Under the pieces are notes generated by a model. That model searched no databases, was not told the DNA's origin, and saw only the letters and a program-made list of their open reading frames with translations. From Parcubacteria group bacterium GW2011_GWA2_40_23 (GTDB lineage Bacteria; Patescibacteriota; Patescibacteriia; UBA11705; JABHMO01): a DNA stretch of 64,000 bases. The first letter of the stretch is position 1. Each line of letters opens with the position of its first letter. Below are positions 38,855 to 63,781 of the stretch, one piece after another. Location: positions 17,197-81,196 of the forward strand of contig LBYP01000001.1 in NCBI GenBank assembly GCA_000996245.1, given 5' to 3'. A program made the position numbers and the translations under genes.

Positions 38855-38884
38855 AAGTATCTTAATAGTACAAGAAATTTAGGT

Positions 38885-38923
38885 AAAAAAGAAGTCCCCA
38901 CACCGATGCCGATGTGAGGACTT
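38885..38923 (-). terminator. Rho-independent terminator of the GC-rich island-1 gene
   Basis: On the minus strand: AAGTCC-(20 nt loop)-GGACTT-c-TTTTTT. A second hairpin GTCCC...GGGAC lies at 38924-38939. Confidence 0.55.
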
Positions 38924-38949
38924 GTCCCGTGAGAGGGACGGGGGACAGG

Positions 38950-40026
38950 CTACGCCTTGGCGCCGTCGCGGATGGCGCGGCAGCGGGCGAAGCCGAAGGG
39001 GAACAGGGGGCAGGACGAGCCGGCGCAGATGCCCATGAGGCACATGGCGGCGTGCTCTGCCGCGTAGTAGCGGGGGTCGAGCGCGATCTTCACGATCTGG
39101 ATCAGCCGCTCGAACGGGATCTTGGTCGGGTCGATGCCCTTGGCAGAGTGCGACCCGTTCAGGATGCTGTGACCGTGTGCGAAGTGCCACACGCTTTCTT
39201 CGTCGTCGCCGCGCAGCTTCTTCTCTTCTACCTCGATGGCGTTGGCGAGGTCGCTCAGGTCCAGTCCCAGGCGCTGGTCGGTCTGGATCGCCACGTTCCC
39301 GCGGGAGTCGATCTTGACGACGACCGCGGCGTTGGCACCATGCTGGCTACGAGCGTAGCGCATGATCGCCATCGAGTCGCTCCGCACCGAGCACAGGGTG
39401 ATGTCCCCCTTGCTGCTGCGGATGGTCTCGATCTTGGAGTTGGCCTCGAAGTCCTTCTTGGAGGTCTCCACGAAGTCGAAGTGATCGAACACCTTCGCCT
39501 CCATCCCCAGCTCCAGCCATTTTTTCCAGTTCCTCTTGTCCTGGGCCAGCAGCATTGCGATGAGCTGAAGGCTGTAGTCGTTCGACGGGTTCAGCTCGCC
39601 GATCTTGACGTCGAAGGCCGCGTAGGCCCACTCCAGCATGTCGACGGCAGGGACGTTCTGCATCCCCATGAAGGTGAGGATCCTGCAGAGGTTGAAGGGT
39701 TGGTCGCCGGAGTTCGTGTCGTTCTTGTGCACGTAGTTCAGCAACCCCGCGATCTGCGGGGTGTGCTCGACGTGCAAAGCGTTGGCCAGCAACATGGCGC
39801 TGCTGGTTTCGCCAGACTTCATCAGGTGGTCGTTGAAGCGACCCTTGCCCACGCCGAACTCCAGGATGCCTTCGGGCGAGGCGTACTCGCGCAAGAAGGC
39901 GGGCGTGCCCCAATTTTCGGCGATGTAGCAGCACAGAAACTCGTCCGGGTGAGGGTTGGTATGCGTCACCACGATGATTTTGCGTCCCGCCACTTTGACG
40001 GGAATGCGGATCGTCTCTCTGGCCAT
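38950..40026 (-). CDS. GC-rich island-1 gene: putative UPF0160/MYG1-like metal-dependent hydrolase
   Basis: 358 aa with normal amino-acid composition and strong G/C third-position bias. VVTHTNPHPDEFLCCYIA resembles the MYG1 THxGxFHxDEALAC motif. GVGKGRFNDH and HFAHGHSILNGSH resemble later MYG1 metal-site segments. Consensus SD GGAGG lies 7 nt upstream. Confidence 0.6.
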   Translation of the reverse strand: MARETIRIPVKVAGRKIIVVTHTNPHPDEFLCCYIAENWGTPAFLREYASPEGILEFGVGKGRFNDHLMKSGETSSAMLLANALHVEHTPQIAGLLNYVHKNDTNSGDQPFNLCRILTFMGMQNVPAVDMLEWAYAAFDVKIGELNPSNDYSLQLIAMLLAQDKRNWKKWLELGMEAKVFDHFDFVETSKKDFEANSKIETIRSSKGDITLCSVRSDSMAIMRYARSQHGANAAVVVKIDSRGNVAIQTDQRLGLDLSDLANAIEVEEKKLRGDDEESVWHFAHGHSILNGSHSAKGIDPTKIPFERLIQIVKIALDPRYYAAEHAAMCLMGICAGSSCPLFPFGFARCRAIRDGAKA

Positions 40027-40085
40027 GAAAGCACCTCCAGTAAATGGTTTTTGTTGACTCTTAACTGTGTCCTTTTGAACTAGCC

Positions 40086-40127
40086 ATTATAGCATACTTT
40101 TATCTTTTTGTCAACTCTTTTTGTCAA
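40086..40127 (-). promoter_or_regulatory. Perfect-consensus sigma70 promoter driving island-1 gene (TTGACA-17-TATAAT), with a second TTGACA 13 nt upstream
   Basis: Seen directly on the minus strand: -35 at 40109-40114, -10 at 40086-40091, extra TTGACA at 40122-40127. Confidence 0.6.
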
Positions 40128-40294
40128 CTGTGAGTATAAGGGTTTTCTTTAACTGCACAGCAAGTCCATTTAAAGGAATGATAAATATTTTTATCTAAAT
40201 TTAAACGTTTTTTGTCTTTAACAAAACAAAAAAAAGACAATTTTTGTCTTTTTTTAAAAGGTTTACCATGAAGTCACACTTCGTGTGTACTTCA

Positions 40295-40373
40295 TGGTGG
40301 ACGCTAGTGGGGTCGAACCACTGACCTCCTCGACGTCAACGAGGCGCTCTAGCCAACTGAGCTAAGCGTCCAC
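40295..40373 (-). tRNA. tRNA-Val (anticodon GAC)
   Basis: GTGGACGCTTAGCTCAGTTGGCTAGAGCGCCTCGTTGACGTCGAGGAGGTCAGTGGTTCGACCCCACTAGCGTCCACCA. 7-bp acceptor stem, anticodon loop TTGACGT, encoded CCA. Confidence 0.85.
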
Positions 40374-40616
40374 AAAGTACAGACTTTGCCTGACTTTATG
40401 GCAAGCCCCTAGTCGGCAAAGCTGTTTTTGATGGACAATAGATTTGTTTTTTATTAACGTGGCTTGTCACGTACTGACGTATGGTTCACCAGGAAGTACA
40501 CACGAAGTGTGACTTCATGGCAAGCCAGGCAGTATAAACAGAGTTTAACTTCATAGCAAGCCTAAAGCTATGCTGTCGTATGGTTCACCATAAAGTCACG
40601 CGTAGCGTGTACTTTA

Positions 40617-40693
40617 TGGTGGGCCTGATGGGACTCGGACCCATGACCCCCACTTTATAAGAGTGGTGCTCTAACCAGCTGAGCTACAGGCCC
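40617..40693 (-). tRNA. tRNA-Ile (anticodon UAU)
   Basis: GGGCCTGTAGCTCAGCTGGTTAGAGCACCACTCTTATAAAGTGGGGGTCATGGGTCCGAGTCCCATCAGGCCCACCA. Ile-type body (resembles tRNA-Ile GAU) but the anticodon loop is CTTATAA. The T-loop is TCCGAGT (C at position 55). Confidence 0.7.
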
Positions 40694-40851
40694 TGAACTA
40701 CTCGTTCCTCGAGTTCAGGGCAAGCCCGAATCGAGGATGCGGAAAAATAGTGTGCTTCGCTCGGGTTTCGGGCAAGCCCTTCATCGAGGAAAGCGATCAA
40801 ACGTGATTGAATAATATCAAATATCAAACTATTTGTCGAGGTAAGAAGCAG

Positions 40852-42006: not shown

Positions 42007-42156
42007 TCAAGATATTGTATAGAAAACAGTAACTACTGTCAAGGTATGAGTGGGGGTAAACCATAACTGCTTTATTGTGTCAATTTTGTTGTAATTTTGG
42101 GGGTTATATGGTATTATTTAGGCAGTTAGTTTGTGGTAAATTAATATTTTTTTAGT

Positions 42157-45100
42157 ATGGAAATTGATAAAGCTTATAGCCCCCAGGAAAAAGAAGAAAA
42201 AATTTATACTGATTGGCAAAAAAAAGGACTTTTTAATCCAGATACTTTAAATAGAAAAGGCGCCAAGGCTTTCTCAATTGTTTTACCGCCGCCAAATGTT
42301 ACCGGCACTTTGCATTTGGGGCATGCTTCGATGTTGGCTATTGAAGATTTAATGATCCGCTATAAACGCATGCAAGGTTTCGATACTCTATGGGTACCAG
42401 GGACAGACCATGCGGCTATTGCCACTCAAAATGTGGTTGAGAAAAAAATTTATAATGAAGCCAAAAAGACTCGTCACGATTTTGAGCGTGATGATTTTTT
42501 ATCTTTAGTGGCTGATTTTGCTGAAAAATCAAAAGAGACAATCCGCAATCAAGTGCGAAAAATGGGTTCAAGCTTAGATTGGAGTCGCGAAGCTTATACG
42601 TTGGATGAGGTTAGAAGTAAGGCTGTCAAAAAAGTTTTCAAAATGATGTCTGACGATGGTTTGGTTTATCGTGGATACCGTATCGTCAATTGGTGCCCGC
42701 GATGTCACACAACTTTAGCTGACGATGAAATTGTATACAAGGAAACAAAGAGTAAATTATATTGGATAAAATATGGTCCGTTTGTTTTAGCTACAACTAG
42801 GCCTGAAACAAAGCTGGGAGATACGGCTGTAGCTGTAAATCCAGGCGACGAACGTTATAAAGACATGGTCGGAAAGAAATATATGATCCCAGGGGTTTTG
42901 GGAGAGTTTGAAATTACTGTTATTGCTGATGAAGCAGTTGATCCTGTCTTTGGTTCTGGCGCAGTTAAAGTTACGCCAGGACATAGTGTAGTTGATTATG
43001 ACATGGCTATGCGTCATCACATTAAAGTTAAAAAGATTATCGACGAAGATGGTCGCATGATGGCAAATTGTGGAAAGTATGCCGGCATGACAACGTTCGA
43101 AGCGCGCGAAGCGATTGTCAAAGATATGCAAGCTATGGGTTTGATCGAAAAGATTGATGAAGATTATGATAATAAATTGTCAGTTTGTTATCGTTGCAAA
43201 ACAATCGTGGAACCATTGCCATCGTCTCAATGGTTTATTGATGTTAATAAAAAAATTATTAAGAAAGATAATAAGTATTTTAAAAATGGAGCTTCGCTTA
43301 AAGAAGTATCGCTCAAAGTTGTGCGTGATGGAGAAATTAAAATTATTCCTGAGAGATTTGAAAAAACATATTTTCAATGGATGGAAAATTTGCGTCCTTG
43401 GTGTATTTCACGTCAAATATGGTTTGGCCATCGCATTCCTGTTTGGTATAAAAAACAAAAATCTTTTTTGGTTATGGCTTCACGTCACGGAGAAGCTAAA
43501 AATAATCACGAAAAGCTTTTAAATTCAGATATAAACTATCGTTCATATACGTTAACTGAAAAAGGCAGAGCCGATATTGCCGCTGATGCTGAAAGATTGA
43601 AACGAGAAGGACATAAATTCGATATAATTTTTACTTCAGACTTTGAAAGAACAATGCAAACTGCAAAAGTTTTTGCAGAAGCTTTTAAGGCTGAAATTAT
43701 TCCAGAAAAACGTTTACGTGAAGTCGGTATGGGTGAGTTTGATGGGCAAGAAGATGTGCCCGAAGGACCATTTGACCAATTGCGTAATAATTTTGAGGGC
43801 TGGCATCACAATAGTCCAAAGGGAATTGAATCTTTTGATAGTTTAAAGATACGGGTCGAATCCTTTCTTAATGAAATTAAAGCTAAATATCCAGATAAGA
43901 AAGTTATGATTGTAACTCATGGTGACCCACTGAGAATTATAAATGGATACGGCACAGATTTTTCTGACGAAGAAATATTTAATTTGGGTTTTCCTGGAGT
44001 CGGTGAACAGATTTGGATTGATTTAGCTCGTAAAAAAGAACGAGTTGTGACAGAAGAGGTTTTGGATTCTAGTGAATGGGAACAAGATTCAGACACCCTT
44101 GATACTTGGTTCTCGGCCGGACTTTGGTCATTTACAACTTTGTTGCCAAAGGATTGGGACGGCAAAGACTTCAAGTCCGCTGACATGAAACGATTTCACC
44201 CCACAACAGTTTTAGAAACAGGTTATGATATTATTTTCTTTTGGGTAGCGCGTATGATTCTTATGACCACTTATGTTTTGGGTGAAGTGCCATTTGAAAA
44301 TGTTTATTTACATGGTTTGATCCGGGATATAGACGGCGAAAAAATGTCAAAATCAAAACCGGAGACATCCATCGATCCATTAGACGCGGGGAACAAATAT
44401 GGTTTTGATGCGGTTCGTCTCAGCCTCTTGATTGGCAACTCTGCTGGCAATGATATTCGTTTATACGATGAAAAAATTGAAAGCTATCGTAATTTCGTTA
44501 ATAAACTTTGGAATGTGGCTCGTTTCATTTTAACTTCGGTTTCAGATATCTCAGTTGACACCAAGAATCTTGTGGGAGACACTTTAGCTGATAAGTGGAT
44601 TCTGTCCCGATTCAACACTTTGAAACGCGAAGTTACTAGATTATTAGATGAATACAATTTTTCTTTGGCTGGTGAAATGCTACGAGATTTTACTTGGTAC
44701 GAACTCGCTGATTGGTATTTGGAAATTGCTAAAGTCGAAAAAAATAAAGATGCTATTTTGATGAGTATACTTAAAGAGGTTTTGGCTATGTGGCATCCAT
44801 TCGTTCCATTCGTTACAGAAGCGATTTGGAGTAATCTTAATCAACCAGAACAATTGATCGTCAGCGCTTGGCCGGAGACACAGAAAGATTTTATCGACGA
44901 AAAGATCGAAAAACAATTTGAAGTTATTAAACAGATCACAGTCGGAATCCGAAACGTCAGAGCTGAATATAATATTCCATATTCAAAAGACATTGAAGCG
45001 ATCGTCGCTGTAAATTCAGATGCCGAAATGATTGAATCAAATCAAGATGTTGTGAAAAGAATTACACGATTAACAGAATTCAAAGTTGTCGAAGTCGCTA

Positions 45101-45390
45101 AGGGCACAGAATATCCTCAACCAGAAGGTTATGTTTCTGGCGGAACATTTAGTCTCGGGACAGTTTTTGTTAATCTTTCCGGTGCAGTAGATTTGAGTAA
45201 AGAAAGGGAACGCTTACAAAAAGAATTAGATAGTTTAGAAAAATATCTTTCTGGATTAGAAAAGAAATTGTCGAACGATGAGTATGTTAAAAATGCTCCG
45301 GCGAATATTGTGGAAGCAGATAAGGCTCGTCAACTTGAGTCTCAGGAGAAAGTCACGAGCTTGAAAGCACAAATTGCAGAATTAAAATAA
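42157..45390 (+). CDS. valS: Valyl-tRNA synthetase with an inserted histidine-phosphatase (PGAM-like) domain
   Basis: HIGH-type PPNVTGTLHLGHA, KMSKS, and the C-terminal coiled coil. Between WFGHRIPVWY and DSDTLDTWFS lies an in-frame segment of about 210 aa (nt about 43450-44086). Within it, SRHGEAKNN ... IIFTSDFERTMQTA ... VMIVTHGDPLR match the histidine-phosphatase branch-1 signature. Confidence 0.9.
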   Translation: MEIDKAYSPQEKEEKIYTDWQKKGLFNPDTLNRKGAKAFSIVLPPPNVTGTLHLGHASMLAIEDLMIRYKRMQGFDTLWVPGTDHAAIATQNVVEKKIYNEAKKTRHDFERDDFLSLVADFAEKSKETIRNQVRKMGSSLDWSREAYTLDEVRSKAVKKVFKMMSDDGLVYRGYRIVNWCPRCHTTLADDEIVYKETKSKLYWIKYGPFVLATTRPETKLGDTAVAVNPGDERYKDMVGKKYMIPGVLGEFEITVIADEAVDPVFGSGAVKVTPGHSVVDYDMAMRHHIKVKKIIDEDGRMMANCGKYAGMTTFEAREAIVKDMQAMGLIEKIDEDYDNKLSVCYRCKTIVEPLPSSQWFIDVNKKIIKKDNKYFKNGASLKEVSLKVVRDGEIKIIPERFEKTYFQWMENLRPWCISRQIWFGHRIPVWYKKQKSFLVMASRHGEAKNNHEKLLNSDINYRSYTLTEKGRADIAADAERLKREGHKFDIIFTSDFERTMQTAKVFAEAFKAEIIPEKRLREVGMGEFDGQEDVPEGPFDQLRNNFEGWHHNSPKGIESFDSLKIRVESFLNEIKAKYPDKKVMIVTHGDPLRIINGYGTDFSDEEIFNLGFPGVGEQIWIDLARKKERVVTEEVLDSSEWEQDSDTLDTWFSAGLWSFTTLLPKDWDGKDFKSADMKRFHPTTVLETGYDIIFFWVARMILMTTYVLGEVPFENVYLHGLIRDIDGEKMSKSKPETSIDPLDAGNKYGFDAVRLSLLIGNSAGNDIRLYDEKIESYRNFVNKLWNVARFILTSVSDISVDTKNLVGDTLADKWILSRFNTLKREVTRLLDEYNFSLAGEMLRDFTWYELADWYLEIAKVEKNKDAILMSILKEVLAMWHPFVPFVTEAIWSNLNQPEQLIVSAWPETQKDFIDEKIEKQFEVIKQITVGIRNVRAEYNIPYSKDIEAIVAVNSDAEMIESNQDVVKRITRLTEFKVVEVAKGTEYPQPEGYVSGGTFSLGTVFVNLSGAVDLSKERERLQKELDSLEKYLSGLEKKLSNDEYVKNAPANIVEADKARQLESQEKVTSLKAQIAELK

Positions 45391-45425
45391 CCCACGCCTT
45401 TCTCGAAAGGCGGGATACAAATTAT

Positions 45426-46610: not shown

Positions 46611-46614
46611 AAGT

Positions 46615-47055
46615 ATGAAAATTTTGGTCTTGCTCGAAAATTTAGTTCTAAACCCAGACGCAGATTATGCTGTCATCGAATCATCAATGAATAAAATCCA
46701 TAAATGGTTAGACGCTGGTGCTGAGGTAGAATATTTAACAGGTATCAATAAGTTTTTAGAACTTAAAAAGATTGATGATCGTTTTCATGACCTTGATTTA
46801 CCAGATGCCAAGGTTCATAAAAAACAGGAAACAGAAAAATTTAAAGAAGTTTTAGAAATGGTTTCCCCCAGTTTCTTTATTGATTTAAAAGGAAGTTTGG
46901 ATGGCGAAAAAGACATCTCTTCTCAACTAAATGGTGAAAATAAAATTGCAGCTATTGTTTTAGCTGATTTGGCCGAAATGACAAAACTGCCGGATTATCT
47001 CGAAGAACTGAAAGATTATTTAGAGGAAGAAGAAGTTGTTGAAGAAGTAGAATAA
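46615..47055 (+). CDS. Hypothetical acidic protein
   Basis: 146 aa, Glu-rich C-terminus, no family recognised. Confidence 0.45.
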   Translation: MKILVLLENLVLNPDADYAVIESSMNKIHKWLDAGAEVEYLTGINKFLELKKIDDRFHDLDLPDAKVHKKQETEKFKEVLEMVSPSFFIDLKGSLDGEKDISSQLNGENKIAAIVLADLAEMTKLPDYLEELKDYLEEEEVVEEVE

Positions 47056-47056
47056 T

Positions 47057-50048: not shown

Positions 50049-50237
50049 ATGACACCAAAAGTAAACAAAGAAGCTTGCATTGGTTGCGGCACATGCGTTT
50101 CTCTTGCTGGTGATATTTTTCAAATGGGATCAGATGGCAAAGCAGAAGTTATCCCAGGCTGTGATTGTGCTGGTAAGGAAGAATTAGTCAATCAATCTAA
50201 GGATGCTTGCCCGGTTCAGGCAATTAGCGTAGAATAG
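50049..50237 (+). CDS. Small 4Fe-4S ferredoxin
   Basis: 62 aa, CIGCGTC...C...CP. Confidence 0.8.
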   Translation: MTPKVNKEACIGCGTCVSLAGDIFQMGSDGKAEVIPGCDCAGKEELVNQSKDACPVQAISVE

Positions 50238-50290: not shown

Positions 50291-50377
50291 GCTCAGGTGG
50301 CGAAATTGGTACACGCACTACCTTGAGGTGGTAGCGGCCGCAAGGCCATGGAGGTTCAAGTCCTCTCCTGAGCACCA
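50291..50377 (+). tRNA. tRNA-Leu (anticodon GAG), with a long variable arm
   Basis: GCTCAGGTGGCGAAATTGGTACACGCACTACCTTGAGGTGGTAGCGGCCGCAAGGCCATGGAGGTTCAAGTCCTCTCCTGAGCACCA. Encoded CCA. Confidence 0.85.
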
Positions 50378-50522
50378 TAAAGTACACGATTCTCGTGACT
50401 TTATGGCTGGTCATGGAGTTAACTTCTGGTATACTTCAGGGTGAACCATGGTTTTAAATAGATGAATTTAATAGTCCTTAAGTGTTATTTTTTTGACATG
50501 CCATGTCCCAGTTGACGAAACA

Positions 50523-50552
50523 GATTTTTGGTGTTAAAGTAATGAGTCCATT
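50523..50552 (+). promoter_or_regulatory. Candidate promoter for island-2 (TTGACG-17-TAAAGT), followed by the SD GGAAGGGAGAG
   Basis: Seen directly in the AT-rich leader immediately before the GC-rich block. Confidence 0.4.
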
Positions 50553-50597
50553 GAACAGTGCAAAACCTGATTCCGCGGGAGGCGGAAGGGAGAGAAA

Positions 50598-51324
50598 AAT
50601 GCGTCCTATACCTTTACCCGATCGCCTGGACCTAAAACTCCAAGAGATCAACACGAAGCTACGAGGCTTCGGTGTTCCGTTCGACCTGTCTCGTTTGGGG
50701 AATTTCCGCAAGGGAGATTGGCAGATTGACGATGTCATTTCTGTCTTTGCTCATCGGGAGTTCAAGATCGCGGTCTGTTTCATCCTTTTGAAGCCGTGGA
50801 CTGGTGAGCGAACTGAGTATTGGTGCCAGTTCAATAGCACCTACTCGAGCGAAGCTCTGTCCGGCCACATCGTGATTCCCGTGGTGAACGGAACGCACTT
50901 TTTGATGATCAAGTCGTACGGGACTTTCATCGGAGTAGCGCCGCTCCTTTTTCCCCGAGGATTCATCCCGAAGTCGAAAGAGGATTTGCCGGCCGTGGTA
51001 GTTGCGCAGAGTTTGATCGAGCGCAAGCTCGGGGATTGCCTTACGGCTGTCCAGGGTGAAGTTCAAGGTCAAGCTCAGCTTCTGCGTGGTGAGCGCGGCA
51101 CCTTGCGTCTGGCCGAAGATCAGAGCACCAGCGGAAACTGGGTTACAGTCTCGGTCGTCCAGATCAAACTGGATATGGCCAAGTTCGAAGAACGACCCAA
51201 GGATTTCCGTGCGTTCAAGTTGGTTGCCATCAGCGATTTCCTTCAGCGAGTTGTCGCAGGCGAGATCGTTGATATGCACTCTCTTTCCGCATACGTGATG
51301 TACACGGCGGCGAGCAAAGGCTAG
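50598..51324 (+). CDS. GC-rich island-2 gene A: degenerate Nudix-fold-like protein
   Basis: Start chosen at MRPIPLPD, with SD GGAAGGGAGAG 5 nt upstream. The track's 50503 start lies in the AT-rich promoter. LFPRGFIPKSKEDLPAVVVAQSLIERKLG occupies the Nudix-box position but lacks the canonical REx2EE. Confidence 0.5.
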
Positions 51325-51399
51325 CGGGAGGCTAGTCTGGACAATTCTGTTTTCTGACTGTTTAGACGGGAGGTCTGACAGTGAGAAGGCAAGGTTGCT

Positions 51400-52077
51400 A
51401 TGATTCGAGATCTGTTGAAGGCACTCGCTCAGGGTGCCACGGCGGGTTGGAAGCTCCGTGTCAACGGAGTGGAAGTCCCGGCGAACGAAGTCGAGCTCGA
51501 GAACCTCAAGTTCGGGATGATCCGTTGGGGTTCCCTCGGGAGCTACGACTCCTGGGGCTTCCAGGAGGTGGGCGGTGGTGGTGCGGTCCTCGTGCCGTAC
51601 TTCGTCCACCCCGAGCGTGGCATCGTGGTCGGCCTGGTGCAGCAGCCCCGGCCGTTCATGTCCGAGAAGCCGGTGTGGAACCTGCCGCGCGGCTTCATGA
51701 ACCCGGGCCAGACGCACTTCAAGTCGGCCACGGGTGAAGCCCTCGAGGAGATCGGCTCCACCGACGGCAATCGCATCTTCCTGCTGAACGGTGAGCCGGC
51801 CAACCCCAACTCGACCTTCTTCGTCACTCGTGGCAACAACGCCGACGGCAGCCCCAAGGGCATCCGCTTCTACGGCGTCGGCTTCCTGCCCAGCGAGTTC
51901 GAGCCCGAGGGCAACGGCTTCAAGTTCAAGCCTGGCGTGGTCGTTCCGGCCACCAAGGACGCCGAGAAGATCATGGGCTGCCGGTTCGTCGACTGGATGG
52001 AAGCGACGCAGCTCGGCTGCATGATGACCATCTCGGGCGTCGCTCGTCTCGTCGTGTACAAGTACACGGATCTCTGA
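51400..52077 (+). CDS. GC-rich island-2 gene B: Nudix-hydrolase-like (ADP-ribose pyrophosphatase-like) with a variant Nudix box
   Basis: GGGAVLVPYFVHPERGIVVGLVQQ...WNLPRGFMNPGQTHFKSATGEALEEIG = G-x5-Q-x7-GE-x2-EE-xG. The canonical Nudix box is G-x5-E-x7-RE-x2-EE-xG. Confidence 0.55.
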   Translation: MIRDLLKALAQGATAGWKLRVNGVEVPANEVELENLKFGMIRWGSLGSYDSWGFQEVGGGGAVLVPYFVHPERGIVVGLVQQPRPFMSEKPVWNLPRGFMNPGQTHFKSATGEALEEIGSTDGNRIFLLNGEPANPNSTFFVTRGNNADGSPKGIRFYGVGFLPSEFEPEGNGFKFKPGVVVPATKDAEKIMGCRFVDWMEATQLGCMMTISGVARLVVYKYTDL

Positions 52078-52084
52078 TCCACAA

Positions 52085-52120
52085 CCCCCATTCGATGCAA
52101 GGTCGAGTGGGGGCATTTTT
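52085..52120 (+). terminator. Terminator of island-2 (CCCCCA-t-TCGA-tgcaagg-TCGA-g-TGGGGG-catTTTTT)
   Basis: Seen directly. Confidence 0.55.
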
Positions 52121-52139
52121 GTTGCGAGGAACGATAGTG

Positions 52140-52495
52140 ACGAAGCAATCTGTTGTTACGAATAACTTCATAAAGTTGAAGGTTACGAATTATTTCTTAC
52201 GAATAGAATATTCTAATTGGAAGTTTCGAATTATTGTTAACATCTAATTGTTAAGCAGGCAGGTAACATCAAAATAGATGGTTCTATTCGTGAAACGGGA
52301 GCAGTAATTAGTAACATCAATATAGAATGTCTTATTCGTAACCATTTTGTCGAACCTCGTGGTTCATGCTATAATTTTAGTGAAAATATAATAACAAATA
52401 CAAGCTCATAGCTTATAGCAAGTTAGCTTATAGGTGCTAAGCCTTTGGATCATAAGTACCTAGAAGCTATAAGCTAGATTGCTAAAAGCTATATA
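52140..52495. promoter_or_regulatory. Repeat-dense intergenic region: six or more copies of TTACGAATA/TATTCGTAA, plus AGCTTATAG/CTATAAGCT direct and inverted repeats
   Basis: TTACGAATA-type copies at about 52155, 52183, 52199, 52227 (direct) and about 52285, 52330 (inverted). GTAACATCAA(A/T)ATAG occurs twice. AGCTTATAG occurs twice, with CTATAAGCT once, at 52410-52480. Confidence 0.4.
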
Positions 52496-52501
52496 AAAAA
52501 T

Positions 52502-52738
52502 ATGCTTGGACGTATCATCCTTGGTCTGATTTTGTGTGTGGTGGGTTACTTCTTTGTCTGGAAACCCTTAACCTTTCTTGATCTCATCGGCCCGATACCC
52601 TTTGCTGAAAAATGGTTTGGCAATAGTGTGTCTTTTTATAAATTCGTGGGCGTTTTTATTATTATGATTGGTTTTTTAGCCATTACTAACCTTCACGGAC
52701 GTGTACTTGAGTGGTTAGTTGGTTTTATAGCAAGATAA
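52502..52738 (+). CDS. Small membrane protein
   Basis: 78 aa with two TM helices. Confidence 0.45.
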   Translation: MLGRIILGLILCVVGYFFVWKPLTFLDLIGPIPFAEKWFGNSVSFYKFVGVFIIMIGFLAITNLHGRVLEWLVGFIAR

Positions 52739-53455: not shown

Positions 53456-53457
53456 AT

Positions 53458-54867: not shown

Positions 54868-54868
54868 T

Positions 54869-55993: not shown

Positions 55994-56063
55994 AAGCACT
56001 TCGCCGTCTGCGGACGGAAGGCTTGATTTTTCTCTAAATTTATGGTATATTCTCTAAGCTAAT

Positions 56064-57551: not shown

Positions 57552-57552
57552 T

Positions 57553-58530
57553 ATGAGTAAAGTTTCAATCAATCTAGTTACTTGGAACGGAGCCAAATAT
57601 ATAGACAATTGTTTGCGCTCTGTTTTTGCTCAGACGTTTAAAGATTATTCCATTCTAATAATTGACAATGGTTCTTCCGATGAGACTTTGGCGATTATAA
57701 AAGAGCAATATCCGCAACTTAAAGTTATCGAGCATAAAAAAAATATCGGGTTTGCTAAAGCGCACAATCAAGCTATTCATTGGAGCAAGTCTGATTATGT
57801 TTTGCTCTTAAATCAGGATGTGGTTTTAGCATCGGGATATTTAAATGATTTAGTTAATTTTTTGGATAATAATTCCATGGCCGGTTCTGTCGCAGGAAAA
57901 ATTTTGCGTCTTCAAGACGAAGAAAAAACTAATTATATTGATTCTGTTGGTTTGCGTATTTATAAAAATTATCGAGTCGTGGATATGGGGGCGGGGGAAG
58001 TTGATGAAGGGCAATATGACGCTATTACGGAAATTTTTGGTGTTTCTGGCGCTTTGCCAGTTTATCGACGTAAAGCTTTGGAAGAAATAATGTACCAACA
58101 AGAATATTTAGATGAATCATTTTTTAGTTATAAGGAAGATGTTGATTTAGCGCATCGGTTGATCACTGCCGGTTGGCAATCCTGGAGAGTGCCGACAGCG
58201 GTTGCCTATCATGACCGGACGGTAAGTTCTCCATATGAAAAAATGACCGCAGTGAAGGTGGCTCAAAACCGTCAAAAAAAATCAAAATTTGCTAAATTCT
58301 ATTCTTACCGTAATCATCTATATTTTTTGAAAAAGAATTTATCTCGTTTGACCTTGGCAGTATTTTTTTATGAGTTAGTAAAGGCAGTATATGTGTTGTT
58401 GTTTGAACCACGTAATTTGAGAGCGTGGAAAGACTATTTTCATGTCCGCAAGGAATTAAAAGCCAAAAGGGATTTAATTCAAAAACGACGTAAAATTTCT
58501 GAAGAAAAATTAAGCTCTTGGCTCAGTTGA
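57553..58530 (+). CDS. Glycosyltransferase family 2
   Basis: VSINLVTWNGAKYIDNCLRSV...IIDNGSSDET, with a DxD motif. Confidence 0.8.
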   Translation: MSKVSINLVTWNGAKYIDNCLRSVFAQTFKDYSILIIDNGSSDETLAIIKEQYPQLKVIEHKKNIGFAKAHNQAIHWSKSDYVLLLNQDVVLASGYLNDLVNFLDNNSMAGSVAGKILRLQDEEKTNYIDSVGLRIYKNYRVVDMGAGEVDEGQYDAITEIFGVSGALPVYRRKALEEIMYQQEYLDESFFSYKEDVDLAHRLITAGWQSWRVPTAVAYHDRTVSSPYEKMTAVKVAQNRQKKSKFAKFYSYRNHLYFLKKNLSRLTLAVFFYELVKAVYVLLFEPRNLRAWKDYFHVRKELKAKRDLIQKRRKISEEKLSSWLS

Positions 58531-58531
58531 T

Positions 58532-59329
58532 ATGGAGATTTCAATTGTTATTCTAAATTATAAAATGAAGGGCCTGGTTAAAAATTGTTTACAGGCTATT
58601 TTTGAATCACAAATTTCTGTTCCGTACGAAATTATTGTGGTTGATAATGACTCGCATGATGGAGTTGAGCAACTGATTAAAGAAAAATTTCCTACAGTTC
58701 GTTTTATTCAAACTGGTCAAAACCTGGGTATGGGTGGGGGAAATAACGTGGGGATCAAGGCTGCTGTTGGTAAATTTATTTTGATCATGAATCCGGATAT
58801 CTTTGTCTATCCTAATTCTATTCAACAAATGTATGATTATATCAAAGCTAGGTCTGATGTTGGCTTGGTGGCACCGCGTTTGTTAAATCCGGATAAAAGT
58901 TTACAGTATTCTTGTTATCGCTGGTACAACTATCTGACCCCATTATATCGCCGTACAGTTTTAGGCAAATTAAAATTTGCACAGAAAGAAGTTGATCGTT
59001 TTTTAATGACTGATTGGGACCATGCGACTACGAGAGAAGTAGATTGGATACAGGGTTCTTGTTGGTTGGTTCCCAAAAAGGTTTTTGACGAAGTCGGTGT
59101 GTTCGATGAAAAGTTTTTTATGTATTTTGAGGACACAGATTTGTGTCGTCGAATTCATAATGCAAAATATAAAATAATGTATTTAGCTCAGAGCGAAGTT
59201 TTGCATCTTCACCGGCGGCAATCTGCTGACAGTCAATTTTGGGGTGTAGTTTTAAATAAATTAACACGGATACATATTGTGAGTTGGCTGAGATATTTGT
59301 GGAAGTGGCGGGAGAAAAATGTTTTATAG
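58532..59329 (+). CDS. Glycosyltransferase family 2
   Basis: ISIVILNYKMKGLVKNCLQAI...VVDNDSHDG. Confidence 0.8.
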   Translation: MEISIVILNYKMKGLVKNCLQAIFESQISVPYEIIVVDNDSHDGVEQLIKEKFPTVRFIQTGQNLGMGGGNNVGIKAAVGKFILIMNPDIFVYPNSIQQMYDYIKARSDVGLVAPRLLNPDKSLQYSCYRWYNYLTPLYRRTVLGKLKFAQKEVDRFLMTDWDHATTREVDWIQGSCWLVPKKVFDEVGVFDEKFFMYFEDTDLCRRIHNAKYKIMYLAQSEVLHLHRRQSADSQFWGVVLNKLTRIHIVSWLRYLWKWREKNVL

Positions 59330-59330
59330 G

Positions 59331-59360
59331 CAGATTCGTTTAGAGGGAATCTGTTTTATT
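59331..59360 (+). terminator. Terminator after the glycosyltransferase operon (CAGATTC-gtttagagg-GAATCTG-TTTTatt)
   Basis: Seen directly. Confidence 0.5.
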
Positions 59361-59446
59361 GATCGTTTTTCTGATACAATTTAGCTAGCTGAGATGTTGT
59401 TTGTTTTGAGTTACGGAAAAGGGTGGTATAAACTTAACTTTATTCA

Positions 59447-60292
59447 ATGCTCAATATGAAGAAATCAAACTCGGTAATATTATTTAACCAAAAGCAAGTT
59501 CGTCGTTTTTACGATGACGGTAAAGAAACTTGGTATTTTTCTATTATTGATGTTATTGAGATTTTGACTGACACTAGTATCCCAAGGAGATATTGGAGTG
59601 ATTTAAAAAATAAGCTGAAAAACGAGGGTAGTGAAGTGTACGAAAAAATCGTACAGTTGAAAATGACTGCTCCTGATGGAAAACAAAGAAAAACAGACTC
59701 TTTTTCTACGGAAGACTTGCTTCGTGTAATCCAATCGATTCCTTCTCCAAAAGCAGAGCCATTTAAATTATGGTTGGCAAAAGTTGGGTACGAACGGATA
59801 GAAGAAACGGAAGATCCTGAACTTGCCATTGATAGGGCAATGAAAACTTATTTGAAAAAAGGTTATTCAAAAGAATGGATAAATCAACGTCTAAAAAGTA
59901 TTGAAGTACGCAAAGAATTAACTGATGAATGGCAAGAGCGCGGAATGAAAGAAGGGCTGGAATATGCGATATTAACTGATGAAATTACCAGAGCGTGGGC
60001 AGATAGAAGCGTGAGAGATTATAAAAAGTTTAAGGGCTTAAAAAAGGGGAATCTGAGAGATAATATGACTAATCTTGAGTTGATATTGAATATGCTCGCT
60101 GAAGCATCAACAGCAGAAATATCAAAGAAGAAAAAGCCCAATGGGTTAGAAAACAATAAACAAGTTGCCAGAAAAGGAGGATTTGCCGCAAAAAAGGCGA
60201 GACTTGAAATAGAAAAGCAAATGGGGGAAAGTATAATAACCGCTAAGCGGGCAAAAAAAATAAAAGTAAAACAAAACTTTTTTTTAGAGTAA
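59447..60292 (+). CDS. Bro-N/KilA-N-like DNA-binding domain protein (phage antirepressor-like)
   Basis: The N-terminal region (VRRFYDDGKETWYFSIIDVIEILTD...RYWSDLK) resembles Bro-N. C-terminal basic helical region. Confidence 0.5.
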   Translation: MLNMKKSNSVILFNQKQVRRFYDDGKETWYFSIIDVIEILTDTSIPRRYWSDLKNKLKNEGSEVYEKIVQLKMTAPDGKQRKTDSFSTEDLLRVIQSIPSPKAEPFKLWLAKVGYERIEETEDPELAIDRAMKTYLKKGYSKEWINQRLKSIEVRKELTDEWQERGMKEGLEYAILTDEITRAWADRSVRDYKKFKGLKKGNLRDNMTNLELILNMLAEASTAEISKKKKPNGLENNKQVARKGGFAAKKARLEIEKQMGESIITAKRAKKIKVKQNFFLE

Positions 60293-60327
60293 CGTTCTGC
60301 TAGAAATTAGATATAGTAAACGTCATT

Positions 60328-62352
60328 ATGCACAGTCACAAACAAAACTTCATCTTTAAACCCCCAAAAAGAAAGTTGCCTGAACATCTTAGTTTTTTAG
60401 GTAATGTTTTGGTTGTCAGTCTGCGTTTATTACCATATTTGTTCATATTATTTATTTGTTTAATTGTTTGCTTGTTGATTATTGTCGCCGCAGGGGTAGT
60501 GCCACATTATGCTTCTTTGAAAAATGTTTATGTGGAAGCACAGCTCGGTCAGCAGCACATGTTAACAGCAGAAGCCCAGGTACGTGAGTATGAATTCGCC
60601 AAAGCTGAGACGGAGTTGCAACTAGCCAAAGAAAGTTTTGTCGAGGCGCAAAAAAGTTTAGCTGTTGTCGATGATTCATTTCTCATGAAGAGTAGCTATT
60701 TACGTAATCAATATGATGTTGCTAGCGATGTTTTGTTTATCGGTGAAGAATTAGCCAATTCAGTCAATGGTTTGTGTGTCATAGGCGCTCGGGCCATGGA
60801 CGCGGTTTCAGATAAGAATATGAGTTTTGAAAAGATTGATGCTACGACTAAGGGCGAACTCTTGGCGGTTCTCATATCTTCAATGAATGAACTCAAAGAC
60901 GTGCGTCGTAATATCGGTATAGTGGGAGAAAAGCTCCGAGAAATTAACACTAAACAACCACTATTCATTTTTGATAAAGTCGTAGATCCATTACAAGCAA
61001 AAATCCCACAAATCGAAAAAGCTTTTGATGCTTCACTGTCATTTTTACGTGCCTTGCCTTGGCTTACAGGTTACCCAGAAGAAAAAACATATTTGTTTAT
61101 ACTCGAGAATAACAGAGAAATGCGTCCGGCCGGTGGTTTTATTGGCACATACGGAATTTTTCAAGTTGCCAATGCTGAAATTAAAAATTTTTATACAGAT
61201 AATAGTTATAATTTAGATGTCAAAGTTAAAGATACTCAAAAGATTCCGGCGCCAAAACCAATGGAAAAGTATATGGCGCAACCAAATTGGTTTTTTCGTG
61301 ATTCTAACTGGTGGCCAGATTGGCCAACTTCAGCCGAAAAGATTGCTTGGTTTTATGATCAAGAGGGCGGCACGGAAAAACTTGATGGGGTAATTGCTAT
61401 TACTCCGACAGTTATTGAACAGTTACTGGGATTCCTCGGTGAATTTGAAATTGGTGGTTTAAAATTCAACCAACAAAATTTTTGGGAACAATTACAATAC
61501 CAAGTTGAGTACGGTTATTATAAACAGGGAATAGATGCAGCAGACCGCAAAGATATTATCGGTGACCTCAGTCGCGAAATGATTAAACGTCTTTATTCGT
61601 ATCCGATTTCGCAGTGGCCAGCTTTGATTGATACTATTTCTAAATCAGTCAAAGAAAAACATATTCTGATTTATTTCTTCGATCCATTAGCTCAGTCAGT
61701 GTCAGTGGAAAATGGTTGGGCTGGGGAAGTGAAGCCAAATCCAGGTGATTATGTGATGCTTGTCGATGCGAATCTAGCAGCTCTCAAAACTGATTCTGTT
61801 ATGGCGCGCACGATGGTTTATAATTTACATGAGAACAAAGATGGAGCAGTGCTCGCTGAAACTCGCGTCAATTATCAAAACATGGGGACCTTTACTTGGA
61901 AAACAACTCGTTATCGATCTTATACTCGTTTATATGTTCCAGAAGGCAGTCAACTGATTTCTGTCGAAGCTGGTGGTAAAGTTTATAAACCAGAGGATGT
62001 TGATACTGTTAATGAATTTGGTAAAACTTCATACGCAGTTTTCTTTGAGGTAGAACCGCAGACATCCAAAGAAGTTGTGTGGAAATATCAATTACCAAAT
62101 TCTATTGTCGAACAAATTAAAAACGGAGAATATCAACTTTTAGTTCAAAAACAACCTGGGATTGAGAAAATGAATTTACAACTTAATCTTAATTTTTCGA
62201 CTGAAGTTCGTGATCTTGGTGTTGAGGAACAATTAAATGCTTTAGATATCAGCAAAAAAGCAAAAAAGCAAGAAAGCAAACAGATTGTGAAACAAGCTAC
62301 TGTCTTGCGACAAGATCAGGAATATTCTGTGTGGTTTAATGCAAAAAAATAA
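60328..62352 (+). CDS. Membrane-anchored extracytoplasmic protein, DUF4012-like
   Basis: 674 aa. N-terminal TM helix, a coiled-coil segment, and ENNREMRPAGGFIGTYG resembling the DUF4012 core (NNAE(I/L)RATGGFIGS). Confidence 0.55.
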   Translation: MHSHKQNFIFKPPKRKLPEHLSFLGNVLVVSLRLLPYLFILFICLIVCLLIIVAAGVVPHYASLKNVYVEAQLGQQHMLTAEAQVREYEFAKAETELQLAKESFVEAQKSLAVVDDSFLMKSSYLRNQYDVASDVLFIGEELANSVNGLCVIGARAMDAVSDKNMSFEKIDATTKGELLAVLISSMNELKDVRRNIGIVGEKLREINTKQPLFIFDKVVDPLQAKIPQIEKAFDASLSFLRALPWLTGYPEEKTYLFILENNREMRPAGGFIGTYGIFQVANAEIKNFYTDNSYNLDVKVKDTQKIPAPKPMEKYMAQPNWFFRDSNWWPDWPTSAEKIAWFYDQEGGTEKLDGVIAITPTVIEQLLGFLGEFEIGGLKFNQQNFWEQLQYQVEYGYYKQGIDAADRKDIIGDLSREMIKRLYSYPISQWPALIDTISKSVKEKHILIYFFDPLAQSVSVENGWAGEVKPNPGDYVMLVDANLAALKTDSVMARTMVYNLHENKDGAVLAETRVNYQNMGTFTWKTTRYRSYTRLYVPEGSQLISVEAGGKVYKPEDVDTVNEFGKTSYAVFFEVEPQTSKEVVWKYQLPNSIVEQIKNGEYQLLVQKQPGIEKMNLQLNLNFSTEVRDLGVEEQLNALDISKKAKKQESKQIVKQATVLRQDQEYSVWFNAKK

Positions 62353-62388
62353 CCCTTTGAAGCTTTAGCGGAGAAGGATACAAAGTTA

Positions 62389-62419
62389 AGAGCCGGAACG
62401 ATGAGATCGTTCCGGCTCT
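62389..62419. terminator. Bidirectional terminator: a perfect 14-bp stem (AGAGCCGGAACGAT-gag-ATCGTTCCGGCTCT)
   Basis: Seen directly between convergent genes. It marks the left edge of GC-rich island-3. Confidence 0.65.
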
Positions 62420-62426
62420 TGTTGTC

Positions 62427-62714
62427 TTAGCTTCGTGATTTGATCTGCTCGGCACGATCCCACGCAGCCTGGATCGTAGCGGAGGTCGGGCCAAGATCCG
62501 GGTTCTCGTACGGATATTGGCGTCCTGGAAAGAGGGTCGGATTTTCTTGGCCACAGGAACAGAACCACCCCGTAGCGTCGCTATTCAAGACATTGGCTGT
62601 TTTGTGGCATTTGCCACAAGTGGCGCCTGTCATGCCTGGATAAGCAGCCCAAGTGGTCATGGCCTCGACCAGCTCGTCTTCGGTGTAGCTGTGGAAACGG
62701 TCCTTCGCCATCAT
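62427..62714 (-). CDS. GC-rich island-3 gene: small Cys-rich zinc-ribbon-like protein
   Basis: 95 aa, with CGKCHK...CSCGQE. Confidence 0.5.
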   Translation of the reverse strand: MMAKDRFHSYTEDELVEAMTTWAAYPGMTGATCGKCHKTANVLNSDATGWFCSCGQENPTLFPGRQYPYENPDLGPTSATIQAAWDRAEQIKSRS

Positions 62715-62722
62715 AGCCTCCT

Positions 62723-63319
62723 TTACACGGTCGCTTGCGCGACCGGTTGCGCAAATTGGTGTCGTTGCTTCTTGAGCGGTTCGCGCAGATAGATGACGAC
62801 GAGCTGGAAGTCGTTATAACTGCGCTTACGCCATTGACGCCATGACCCACAGGAGGCACCGAGGTTCGTTCCCTTGAGGACGAACCAGGGAGCCAAGTGT
62901 CCGTACGGATTGGGGATGATCTCGAGTTCATGGTAGCCGGGTGCGAGAGCGATGGGGTCCTTGCATTTGGGCTGGTTGCTATCATAGACCGTGTGCTGTG
63001 ATCCTCGAACCAGCGCGTAGATGTGCTTGGTCTTGCGGTAGTGGAGGGTCACGCCGCTCTCGGGGTCGGCGGACTTGGCCTGCCAGGCGTCGCTGGCGAT
63101 GCCGGTCATGGTGCCGGTGAGGACGTACCACGGCGAGCCGTGATCGAAGCCGTACGGATTTTCCACTTCTTCGAGCTGGTAGTAGCCAGGCTCGAGAGTG
63201 TAGTCCGCGAAATCAGGATCACGGTCGAGATCGCGGTCTGCCTCGGTCTGAGGAACGTGCTCGAACAGCCGAATTGGCTTGCGCACCAGGGCGAAGATGA
63301 ACTGTTTTCTTTCGATCAT
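62723..63319 (-). CDS. GC-rich island-3 gene: protein built from two copies of an unrecognised ~90-aa domain
   Basis: Repeat 1 is FIFALVRK...PGYYQLEEVENPYGFDHGSPWYVLTGTMTGIASDAW. Repeat 2 is HIYALVRG...PGYHELEIIPNPYGHLAPWFVLKGTNLGASCGSW. Confidence 0.55.
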   Translation of the reverse strand: MIERKQFIFALVRKPIRLFEHVPQTEADRDLDRDPDFADYTLEPGYYQLEEVENPYGFDHGSPWYVLTGTMTGIASDAWQAKSADPESGVTLHYRKTKHIYALVRGSQHTVYDSNQPKCKDPIALAPGYHELEIIPNPYGHLAPWFVLKGTNLGASCGSWRQWRKRSYNDFQLVVIYLREPLKKQRHQFAQPVAQATV

Positions 63320-63331
63320 CGCCGTTACTCC

Positions 63332-63622
63332 TTACGCTGTTACGATGAGGGTGGGCGGCGGGGTCAACTTGATGTTGAGCGGCGTGTCCTGGATGATTAC
63401 CGTCGGCCAGTAGTTCTTGCAGGCGCCGATCTTGCTGCCCTTGATCACGTACCAGGGAATTTCGTGTCCCAGCGGGTTCTTGATCTCTTCCAGTTCGTAG
63501 TCGCCGGCCGCGAGCTCCAACTTGGCGTGGTAGTATTCCGGCTTTCCAGCGAGGTTACCTTGGAAGACTGTGAATCCGGGGAGCTTGAGGTGGACGTAGA
63601 TGAACTTTTCTTGCGTAGCCAT
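63332..63622 (-). CDS. GC-rich island-3 gene: single-domain paralog of the same ~90-aa domain
   Basis: FIYVHLKL...AGDYELEEIKNPLGHEIPWYVIKGSKIGACKNYW. SD AAGGG lies upstream. Confidence 0.55.
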   Translation of the reverse strand: MATQEKFIYVHLKLPGFTVFQGNLAGKPEYYHAKLELAAGDYELEEIKNPLGHEIPWYVIKGSKIGACKNYWPTVIIQDTPLNIKLTPPPTLIVTA

Positions 63623-63661
63623 CTCGTGGCCCTTTCAGGTTGTTACTCAAAGCAACTTGGA

Positions 63662-63690
63662 ATATTATCAGAAAGTGCAAAATTTGTCAA
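63662..63690 (-). promoter_or_regulatory. Near-consensus promoter for the island-3 operon (TTGACA-17-TAATAT)
   Basis: Seen directly on the minus strand: -35 at 63685-63690, -10 at 63662-63667. It shares the intergenic region with the divergent dnaE. Confidence 0.5.
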
Positions 63691-63781
63691 TATTAGTAAT
63701 AAAATTAGTGAAAAACACGAAATTCCACCCTGGCAATTTTATCTATCTATGATAAAATAATGACACATTAAAGAAATATTT

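Follow-up and report, generated by a model that had tools for sequence, protein, structure and literature searches.

Three GC-rich islands in an AT-rich Parcubacteria-type genome: probable long-term residents with a maintained base composition

Recent horizontal gene transfer (HGT) is usually diagnosed from an atypical base composition, with amelioration as its clock. How are genes to be understood that contradict both expectations? The question is raised by three GC-rich islands in a 64-kb stretch of the genome of Parcubacteria group bacterium GW2011_GWA2_40_23 (contig LBYP01000001.1, positions 17,197 to 81,196), here called the window and numbered from its first letter. An earlier note on this DNA had singled out the islands and suggested recent or recurrent acquisition, a cassette mechanism, or a mosaic or engineered region. 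What is said below of the islands rests on the window and on sibling loci, designated by L numbers. The explanation that, taken whole, we consider probable is that the islands are long-resident accessory transcription units of a Parcubacteria-type lineage of the candidate phyla radiation (CPR), not recently acquired, and that their genes are kept GC-rich by a fixation bias within the open reading frames (ORFs). The island ORFs belong to CPR-restricted, uncharacterised families.

Composition and coding status of the islands

GC averages about 36-38% in the window and about 0.36 outside the islands. The islands, at about 38890-40030, 50540-52120 and 62380-63640, have a GC of 0.56-0.62 with local peaks above 0.70, and their borders are sharp. 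GC at third codon positions (GC3) is 0.21-0.38 in all 63 native ORFs of the per-ORF table, those for ribosomal proteins, EF-G and EF-Tu included, and 0.62-0.90 in all six island ORFs, with no overlap between the two ranges. The unusual pattern that had been noted is thus borne out by the borders and by the two GC3 classes. Island 1 consists of one ORF, I1 (38950-40026, minus strand; 358 aa, GC3 0.90, GC 0.62). Island 2 has two on the plus strand, I2a (50599-51324; 241 aa, GC3 0.64), which belongs to no known family, and the NUDIX-like I2b (51400-52077; 225 aa, GC3 0.87, GC 0.64). Island 3 has three on the minus strand, I3a (63332-63622; 96 aa, GC3 0.80), I3b (62723-63319; 198 aa, GC3 0.74) and I3c (62427-62714; 95 aa, GC3 0.62).

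The leaders are AT-rich; the elevation sets in with the start codon and stops past the terminator. In hypC, which lies 95 bp downstream of island 1, GC3 is only 0.24. The elevation is weaker over the first 30 codons (0.73 vs. 0.92 in I1; 0.63 vs. 0.90 in I2b). Codon usage is reversed in every amino-acid family of the island genes, NNC and NNG codons being favored even in two-fold families with a single tRNA, and TTA, CTA and ATA do not occur at all in the island genes of the window. GC at first and second positions (GC1 and GC2) is moderately raised in the orthologues and is nearly constant regardless of GC3, which spans 0.42-0.96 across lineages. The island genes are coding and under constraint, with in-frame indels and dN/dS of 0.1-0.66.

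GC-rich stretches are conspicuous in an AT-rich genome, as a structured non-coding RNA would be, and full-length ORFs do run antisense to the islands at 38914-40083 (plus), 50659-52116 (minus) and 63023-63760 (plus), which GC might be kept to preserve. It is very improbable that either accounts for the composition. An RNA is at odds with the three-base periodicity (GC2 lies far below GC3), with the in-frame indels and with a sense-frame dN/dS below 1, and Rfam scans at gathering and E-value thresholds returned tRNAs only; the antisense frames are closed in less GC-rich orthologues. For most island ORFs these frames are a by-product of the missing TTA, CTA and TCA codons, the null P being 1.00 for all high-GC3 copies of I1, I2b and I3a. 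The exception is I2a, whose 221-codon antisense frame (50659-51324, minus strand) never arose when synonymous codons were shuffled 300 times (null P 0.00); in sibling L010, the frame antisense to I2a is broken between I2a and I2b.

Residence, synteny and exchange

The islands recur in at least nine independent sibling assemblies (from Logan, JGI, ENA and GTDB) with graded divergence and the same AT-rich/GC-rich junctions. The island-bearing loci are L001, L002, L003/L004, L006, L010, L018, L047 and L049, and there are exact protein matches (P0002 and P0016). Such recurrence indicates that the islands are neither an artefact nor engineered. An assembly chimera, contamination or an engineered insert has nothing in its favor except the abrupt change of composition, and with native-type promoters and terminators conserved as well its probability is negligible; the suggestion of a mosaic or engineered region falls on the same junctions.

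Every sibling locus that covers an island site is occupied by orthologous GC-rich genes, and only single genes vary. The presence/absence polymorphism among siblings for which the earlier note had proposed a check therefore has no empty site to show. CPR-type contigs, either AT-rich or of mid GC, carry all homologues with retrieved DNA context (about 15 contexts). The best matches are same-lineage CPR proteins of similarly high GC, which refutes recent HGT by the criterion that the earlier note itself had set.

Vertical inheritance is clearest for island 2, which has syntenic siblings in L003/L004, L006, L010 and L049. In five genomes (window, L010, L049, L006 and L003) the protein identities of I2a and I2b track those of the flanking membrane protein, UPF0102, DUF4870 and pyruvate kinase: window-L006 0.60-0.62 compared with 0.64-0.74 for the flanks, and window-L003 0.55-0.57 compared with 0.55-0.69. 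The comparison reaches down to 55-64% identity of pyruvate kinase. I2a, which has orthologues in L006, L003 and L049, is 93% identical to its L010 orthologue with a dN/dS of 0.11. Its start was set at 50599 by orthology with L010, and this is most likely the true start of the first ORF of island 2, although the longest ORF begins at 50503. I2b has 14 homologues, and all those with a retrieved contig lie in a CPR-type context. It is predicted to be a divergent NUDIX-like protein: its Pfam NUDIX score is 18.5 bits against a cut-off of 21.1, PF00293 is precomputed in 8 of the 14 homologues, and by our own reading the box region is G-x5-Q-x7-GEALEEIGS, which retains the EE pair of GX5EX7REUXEEXGU with the first E and the R replaced. 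No other match was obtained for the island proteins in scans with Pfam, PHROGs, NCBIfam and PADLOC.

The GC3 of I2b is 0.87 in the window, 0.87 in L010, 0.83 in L049, 0.93 in L006 and 0.64 in L003. The family also occurs at another locus, on Candidatus Azambacteria-like contigs (L007-L009, L050 and L051). In the unrelated context of L050 its GC3 is 0.74, compared with 0.38-0.55, and in a third context, L007, 0.42 compared with 0.28-0.44 in the neighbors, a marginal elevation only. Gene content is less stable than position. Among siblings, genes of island 2 have been gained, lost, duplicated and rearranged, L010 and L006 having a GC-rich gene for a 323/300-aa protein that is not in the window and L049 a second NUDIX paralogue. 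The AT-rich spacer after the island 2 terminator (52120-52500), which has TTACGAATA-type direct and inverted repeats, is the position of the extra 323-aa gene of L010. The nucleotide identity between the window and L010 is a mosaic along this region.

For island 1, the synteny reaches back very far. I1 is a divergent DHH/DHHA1-fold (RecJ/NrnA-like) predicted protein with a C-terminal four-cysteine motif, in which both domains of the DHH plus DHHA1 fold were recognized. It has no sequence match in Pfam, NCBIfam or PDB, and a PDB profile search gave noise only. The family-invariant residues H22, D28, E29, H67 and D103 resemble DHH metal-binding motifs, a resemblance that stops short of a mapping onto them. 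Exact database look-up of the protein found no record, and a word index of 5.8 billion proteins yielded one homologue, on the 1.8-kb contig L001, where a 65% GC ORF stands between AT-rich flanks with the same promoter, leader, terminator and downstream hypC/EamA. An exhaustive profile search at E ≤0.001 recovered 1109 representative clusters with no annotation; the DHH/RecJ-like fold, the Cys4 tail and the link to hypC are the first structural handle on this family.

In the window and in L002, a GTDB species representative (ArgRS 71% identical), the I1 gene lies between hypC and a tRNA/DHH/ValRS block, with a GC3 of 0.96 in L002. The flanking housekeeping proteins are mostly 67-77% identical between the two (TyrRS 54%), and I1 only 48%. 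Synonymous sites of native genes are saturated over this distance (pS 0.69-0.80), with I1 at a pS of 0.46 and a pN of 0.35, twice the native value. L047 has the promoter, leader, terminator and hypC side in common, and its ORF has a GC3 of 0.86 compared with 0.30 in the neighbors. At 28% identity, in L052 and L053, the family is still found beside SecY-ADK-MAP-RuvX-RecO, with HypC on the other side in L052 and DHH-ValRS in L053, and its GC3 is still elevated (0.61 vs. 0.18-0.40 in L052; 0.64 vs. about 0.5 in L053). It is 0.66 between AT-rich flanks in L046; L048 has a family gene without GC elevation. The hypC-like gene of the window (38651-38854, minus strand) is fused in L052 (7259-9882) to a radical-SAM protein, followed by a radical-SAM/BATS protein. 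This arrangement suggests that the DHH-fold/Cys4 protein may work in a context of metallocofactor maturation.

Island 3 is a diversifying, paralogue-expanding locus. A small beta-rich domain, marked by the motif YELEEIxNPxG...WYVIKG, occurs once in I3a and twice in I3b; the family has two to four paralogues per genome. A metagenome scan based on the flanking DUF4012 protein led to the siblings L010 (91% identical) and L018 (85%), both of which have GC-rich genes at the positions of island 2 and/or island 3; more distant DUF4012 loci had no such islands. I3a is 81% identical to its L010 orthologue, and L018 has three diverged paralogues. I3b is hypervariable, at 40-48% identity among the window, L010 and L018 (dN 0.47 between the window and L010) while the flanking DUF4012 and DnaE proteins are 85-99% identical. 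Only two database homologues of I3b were found, and its AF2 model (pLDDT 62) is too poor for a fold search. I3c, a putative gene with a CxxC...CxC zinc-ribbon-like motif and a strong Shine-Dalgarno (SD) sequence, AAGGAGG, is missing in L010 and L018. Hypermutation by a diversity-generating retroelement was considered for this locus and rejected: there are no TR/VR repeats and no adenine-specific skew, with A and T lost from sense third positions to much the same extent. Repeats of at least 40 nt that involve the islands are absent from the whole window, and no reverse-transcriptase domain was found in the scanned ORFs, which lie beyond the first 37 kb.

Another GC-rich island in L018 codes for a protein of 298 aa whose N-terminus resembles a signal peptide. 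Outside the three islands, GC-rich genes with promoters of their own were seen at L018 7553-8449, L050 557-1117 and L011 5033-5509 (all plus strand); they belong to no known family and their products have signal-peptide-like or hydrophobic N-termini. Occurring in siblings and on a more distant CPR contig, such genes indicate that the class exceeds the three islands.

Can the islands nevertheless be drawn, recently or repeatedly, from a high-GC pool (a host, a GC-rich CPR lineage or a mobile element), with ORFs swapped between conserved arms? Their codon usage resembles what is found in high-GC organisms, and all orthologues have a GC-like amino-acid composition. Between the window and L047, the promoter/leader and terminator of island 1 are 78-81% identical in nucleotides, compared with 38% amino-acid identity of the ORF. 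The I1 gene tree of L001 and L002 is incongruent with that of hypC, I3 alleles only 40-48% identical sit between near-identical flanks, and genes have been gained and lost within island 2. Against this stand the CPR-type contexts of all retrieved homologues, the tracking of the flanks by island 2, the very old synteny of the I1 family, and the neutral decay that is expected after a transfer and is not seen. IMG/VR scans with I3b and with the I1 alignment found no viral relatives. No integrase or transposase domain was found by Pfam, PHROG and NCBIfam in the scanned ORFs of 37-62 kb; the ORFs of this interval outside the scan (50049-50237, a ferredoxin on the 48-aa scale; 52502-52738; 57553-58530; 58532-59329) have L003 orthologues with precomputed ferredoxin and glycosyltransferase assignments. 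A repeat search around the islands found neither flanking direct repeats nor copies of a tRNA 3' end. The absence of integrase, transposase and flanking repeats that had been noted earlier is thus confirmed, within these limits, and we regard acquisition from such a pool as improbable. The proposed cassette mechanism is mostly unsupported, given the lack of mobility signatures, but some turnover of a cassette-like kind does exist, in island 3, in the gain and loss of genes in island 2 and in a hint of exchange in island 1.

The islands resemble tRNA-associated integrative islands in the sharp break of composition, in accessory genes of unknown function and in the position of two of the three beside tRNAs. 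They differ in that no integrase, att repeats or mobility genes were found, that positions and genes are deeply conserved while tRNA adjacency is not, and that the composition is not decaying. Unlike integron cassettes, each unit has its own promoter, no integrase was found, and the inverted repeats are terminator hairpins only; no attC-like repeats were seen among them, no dedicated attC model having been run. Phage morons are likewise promoter-ORF-terminator units of deviant composition. The islands, in contrast, lie between core genes (the flanks are hypC/EamA, tRNAs, DHH, ValRS, ferredoxin, UPF0102, pyruvate kinase, DUF4012 and dnaE, with no prophage), have no PHROG or IMG/VR relatives and have been inherited vertically for long.

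Maintenance of the composition

If the islands are old, why have they not come to resemble their surroundings? Synonymous third-position changes were polarised on the window and L010 branches with L006 or L003 as outgroup. Changes from G/C to A/T (S>W) amount to 0.04 per S site in I2b compared with 0.28 in four native genes, a six-fold reduction (Fisher p ~4e-8), and to 0.10-0.16 in I2a (p 0.001-0.03). Changes in the opposite direction (W>S), per W site, are as frequent in island genes as in native ones. The implied equilibrium GC3 of I2b is 0.84, compared with the observed 0.87; by a neutral two-state estimate, a GC3 of 0.87 would have fallen to about 0.75 since the window-L010 split and decayed almost completely over the deeper splits. 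Between the window and L010, native genes have dS of 0.75-1.5 and dN of 0.02-0.10. The island genes have dS of only 0.19-0.39, with dN similar to or above native (dS 0.39 and dN 0.043 for I2a, 0.19 and 0.054 for I2b, 0.27 and 0.11 for I3a). Since S>W is depleted while W>S is normal, GC-richness is actively maintained. A younger coalescence of the islands is disfavored by the same combination together with the normal dN, as is a recent recombination tract, which would have lowered W>S and dN equally. The pattern speaks for fixation being biased in favor of G/C, and this bias would be confined to the island genes.

According to the explanation that we favor, G/C-to-A/T synonymous changes within the ORFs would be removed while A/T-to-G/C changes accumulate normally. 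Each island gene would then stand at its own high-GC equilibrium (GC3 up to 0.90-0.96, compared with about 0.3 for the genome), and the islands would be passed on as part of the chromosome, in constant places among core genes. Residence, synteny, coding status and the asymmetry of the substitutions are demonstrated. The agent we infer to be, most likely, selection on the coding transcript, acting perhaps on mRNA stability or structure, or on translation via a rare, separately regulated set of codons. Selection on the coding transcript is favored because the effect is bounded by the ORFs, follows a gene family into other contexts and is less strict in the first 30 codons. The shift in every codon family, two-fold families with a single tRNA included, indicates a force at the level of composition, not adaptation to particular tRNAs. 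Two more specific forms of selection were rejected. Translational selection of the kind seen in highly expressed genes does not apply, as ribosomal proteins, EF-G and EF-Tu have a GC3 of 0.21-0.30. Avoidance of UA or other motifs as an escape from RNases was also dropped; TA rho is 0.22-0.35 in I1 and I2b compared with 0.6-0.7 in native genes, a difference confounded by codon structure.

The main rival is GC-biased gene conversion (gBGC) at recombination hot spots. The islands would recombine with unusual frequency among population variants, for example through natural transformation, and heteroduplex mismatches would be repaired preferentially to G/C, so that GC3 is driven up and kept there with no benefit to the cell. 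Precisely such an asymmetry between S>W and W>S is expected under gBGC, the shift extends to all codon families and, weakly, to GC1 and GC2, the window-L010 identity is a mosaic, and there is allele replacement or incongruence in island 3 and perhaps in island 1. The borders, however, match ORF start and terminator within tens of bases in several lineages, with the neighbor at 95 bp at a GC3 of 0.24, and the elevation follows gene families into different genomic contexts. The NUDIX-like gene is the most GC-rich and yet shows the least sign of exchange, and the island 3 genes are the most exchange-prone and yet less GC-rich. Reported effects of gBGC on bacterial GC3 amount to a few percent, compared with 60 points here. 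We therefore hold gBGC to be unlikely, though it is the strongest of the rivals.

Several observations weigh against selection in long-resident genes. The uniform shift of codon families fails by itself to separate selection from gBGC, and the polarisation rests on parsimony with distant outgroups and on 5-12 events per gene. The same genes have a GC3 of 0.64 in L003 and 0.42 in L007, and the maintaining force must therefore be lineage-dependent or losable. The I1 ORFs of L001 and L002 are 77% identical in amino acids, more alike than the hypC genes at only 60%, which suggests some horizontal exchange of I1 alleles among relatives (hypC is a yardstick of only 67 aa). Finally, every orthologue has GC-like values of GC1 and GC2, as would fit a foreign origin long ago. 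The GC-like amino-acid composition may indeed go back to an old transfer from a GC-rich donor; by itself such a transfer is insufficient, as it leaves the non-decay of GC3 unexplained.

Selection of this kind would allow a further, tentative interpretation, to which we give less credence than to residence and maintenance themselves. The clade may keep a second, GC-rich "codon dialect" for a few self-promoted genes, selected over the long term because it decouples their expression from the AT-rich transcriptome. The genes concerned would be those for nucleotide-phosphate hydrolase-like proteins, a diversifying family of small proteins and secreted proteins. Decoupling could come about through RNase-resistant, long-lived mRNAs, through rarely used tRNAs, or through the supply of G/C nucleotides, which in an obligate episymbiont could report attachment to the host or starvation away from it. 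A bolder conjecture would have the transcripts adapted to function within a host of high GC.

How do the islands compare with known deviations of composition? In the amelioration model of transferred genes, said to be that of Lawrence and Ochman, likenesses can be found: GC1 and GC2 stay "foreign-like" while GC3 varies from 0.42 to 0.96, third positions moving fastest. Unlike ameliorating genes, the islands have a static GC3 in four of five lineages despite saturation, and the suppression of S>W is in the opposite direction. GC-biased gene conversion in bacteria is a hypothesis reportedly advanced by Lassalle et al. in 2015. With gBGC and with selection on GC content the islands share a preferential fixation of G/C at synonymous sites that runs counter to AT-biased mutation; they differ in being gene-delimited, at a GC3 of 0.9 compared with 0.3 within 100 bp, and not a matter of a few percent that is genome-wide or correlated with recombination. 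A codon-based regulon is known in Streptomyces (bldA/TTA). The likeness lies in a small set of genes with codons rare in their own genome, or of deviant GC, and a proposed link of their expression or cost to physiological state; in the islands, unlike such regulons, whole ORFs are recoded in every family instead of single regulatory codons, and GC-rich codons are used in an AT-rich genome. To our knowledge, no case of GC selection, gBGC or a codon regulon has this amplitude and gene-level resolution, and full-text literature searches turned up no account of such a phenomenon in CPR or other bacteria. The elevated GC of gene transfer agent genes is a related case (Kogay et al., 2020; PMC7360931), and gBGC or selection as an influence on bacterial GC content is treated by Hildebrand et al. 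(2010; PMC2936529). Should the pattern hold genome-wide, it would provide a clean natural system for separating GC or mRNA selection from biased gene conversion in bacteria, counsel caution in labelling such CPR genes as host-derived HGT, and point to an unrecognised layer of regulation or class of genes in ultra-small symbiotic bacteria.

Promoters, terminators and neighboring features

Are the units also equipped alike? The layout that had been described for all three, an own promoter with 17-nt spacing, an SD and a hairpin terminator, is present in each island, with SDs such as GGAGG and AAGGAG(G). The promoters had further been called near-consensus, which is generous for island 2. The island 1 promoter (40086-40114, minus strand) is TTGACA-17-TATAAT with an extended TG, a 12/12 match and the sole perfect one in 64 kb. 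A second TTGACA box lies 13 nt upstream, inside a tandem 13-mer (40103-40128), and the -10 block GTATGCTATAAT is kept in L001, L002 and L047. The island 3 promoter (63662-63690, minus strand; TTGACA-17-TAATAT with TG, 10/12) is kept in L010 and L018, and that of island 2 (50512-50540, plus strand; TTGACG-17-TAAAGT with TG, 9/12) in L010 and L003 and partly in L006. Promoters of 11/12 are also found on native genes (e.g., 42014-42042, 21839 and 23623), which indicates that the island promoters are of the host's own type.

The AT-rich leader of island 1 (40027-40085, minus strand) has its SD, GGAGG, at 40034-40038; it is 78% identical between the window and L047, where the ORF proteins are only 38% identical. 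An Rfam scan of this leader gave no family match. The leader of island 2 contains a small conserved hairpin, TTCCGCGGGAGGCGGAA (50572-50598), which overlaps an SD-like GGGAGG, has counterparts at about 235-261 in L010 and about 9146-9171 in L003, and may be an element of translational control. Hairpin terminators follow all three islands. The intrinsic terminator of island 1 (38886-38923, minus strand) has a 14-bp stem (hairpin 38892-38923) followed by a T run, and together with the next intergenic stretch it is 73-82% identical in all pairs among four sibling loci. That of island 2 (52085-52120, plus strand) has a 12-bp stem (hairpin 52085-52113) and a T run. The terminator-like hairpin of island 3 (62388-62420, minus strand), a perfect 15-bp stem between convergent genes, has only a weak T tail. 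An 11-mer, GGGACAAGTCC, at 38918 and 50255 was considered as a shared border element and rejected, as two matches also arose in 5 of 100 shuffles.

Two islands had been described as abutting tRNA genes, and the positions hold: tRNA-Val(GAC) (40295-40371, minus strand) is 270 bp upstream of island 1 and tRNA-Leu(GAG) (50291-50377, plus strand) 220 bp upstream of island 2. The adjacency itself is not conserved. In L010, the closest sibling, a different gene and terminator precede the same island 2 promoter and there is no tRNA, which indicates that tRNA adjacency is incidental; L003 has a radical-SAM gene between tRNA-Leu and island 2, and L006 has no tRNA. Integration linked to tRNAs, or co-regulation with the adjacent GNN-anticodon tRNAs, was rejected on the loss of adjacency in L010 and L006. 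The same tRNAs occur in the corresponding island 1 neighborhood of L002 and L053, and tRNA-Val is part of this conserved neighborhood and not an integration site.

Palindromes of about 30 nt (CATnAAGTnACAC...GTGTnACTTnATGG) stand on both sides of the tRNA-Val, tRNA-Ile and tRNA-Leu genes (40260-40302, 40370-40407, 40484-40562, 40566-40619 and 50378-50406) with one more copy at the beginning of L001; their hairpins may serve in tRNA processing or as terminators. The tRNA-Ile at 40617-40693 (minus strand), kept in L002 and L053, has a TAT anticodon, which replaces the usual lysidine-modified CAT tRNA for AUA codons. ValRS (42157-45390, plus strand) has a His_Phos_1 domain inserted at about aa 442-617 within its catalytic domain, an architecture shared by L003 and L053. 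A Bro-N domain gene at 59447-60292 (plus strand), of normal GC and missing in L010, is an accessory insertion of ordinary composition in the same region as the islands. Elsewhere in the window, a run of ORFs of normal GC at 6890-14162 (plus strand) is reminiscent, in the sizes of the ORFs and in their N-terminal sequences, of a type I restriction-modification system. Intergenic arrays at 933-1001, 6015-6314 and 16708-16891 consist of a TAATCAT-type repeat with a 9-nt period and super-repeats of 52-58 nt, and may be arrays of protein-binding sites.

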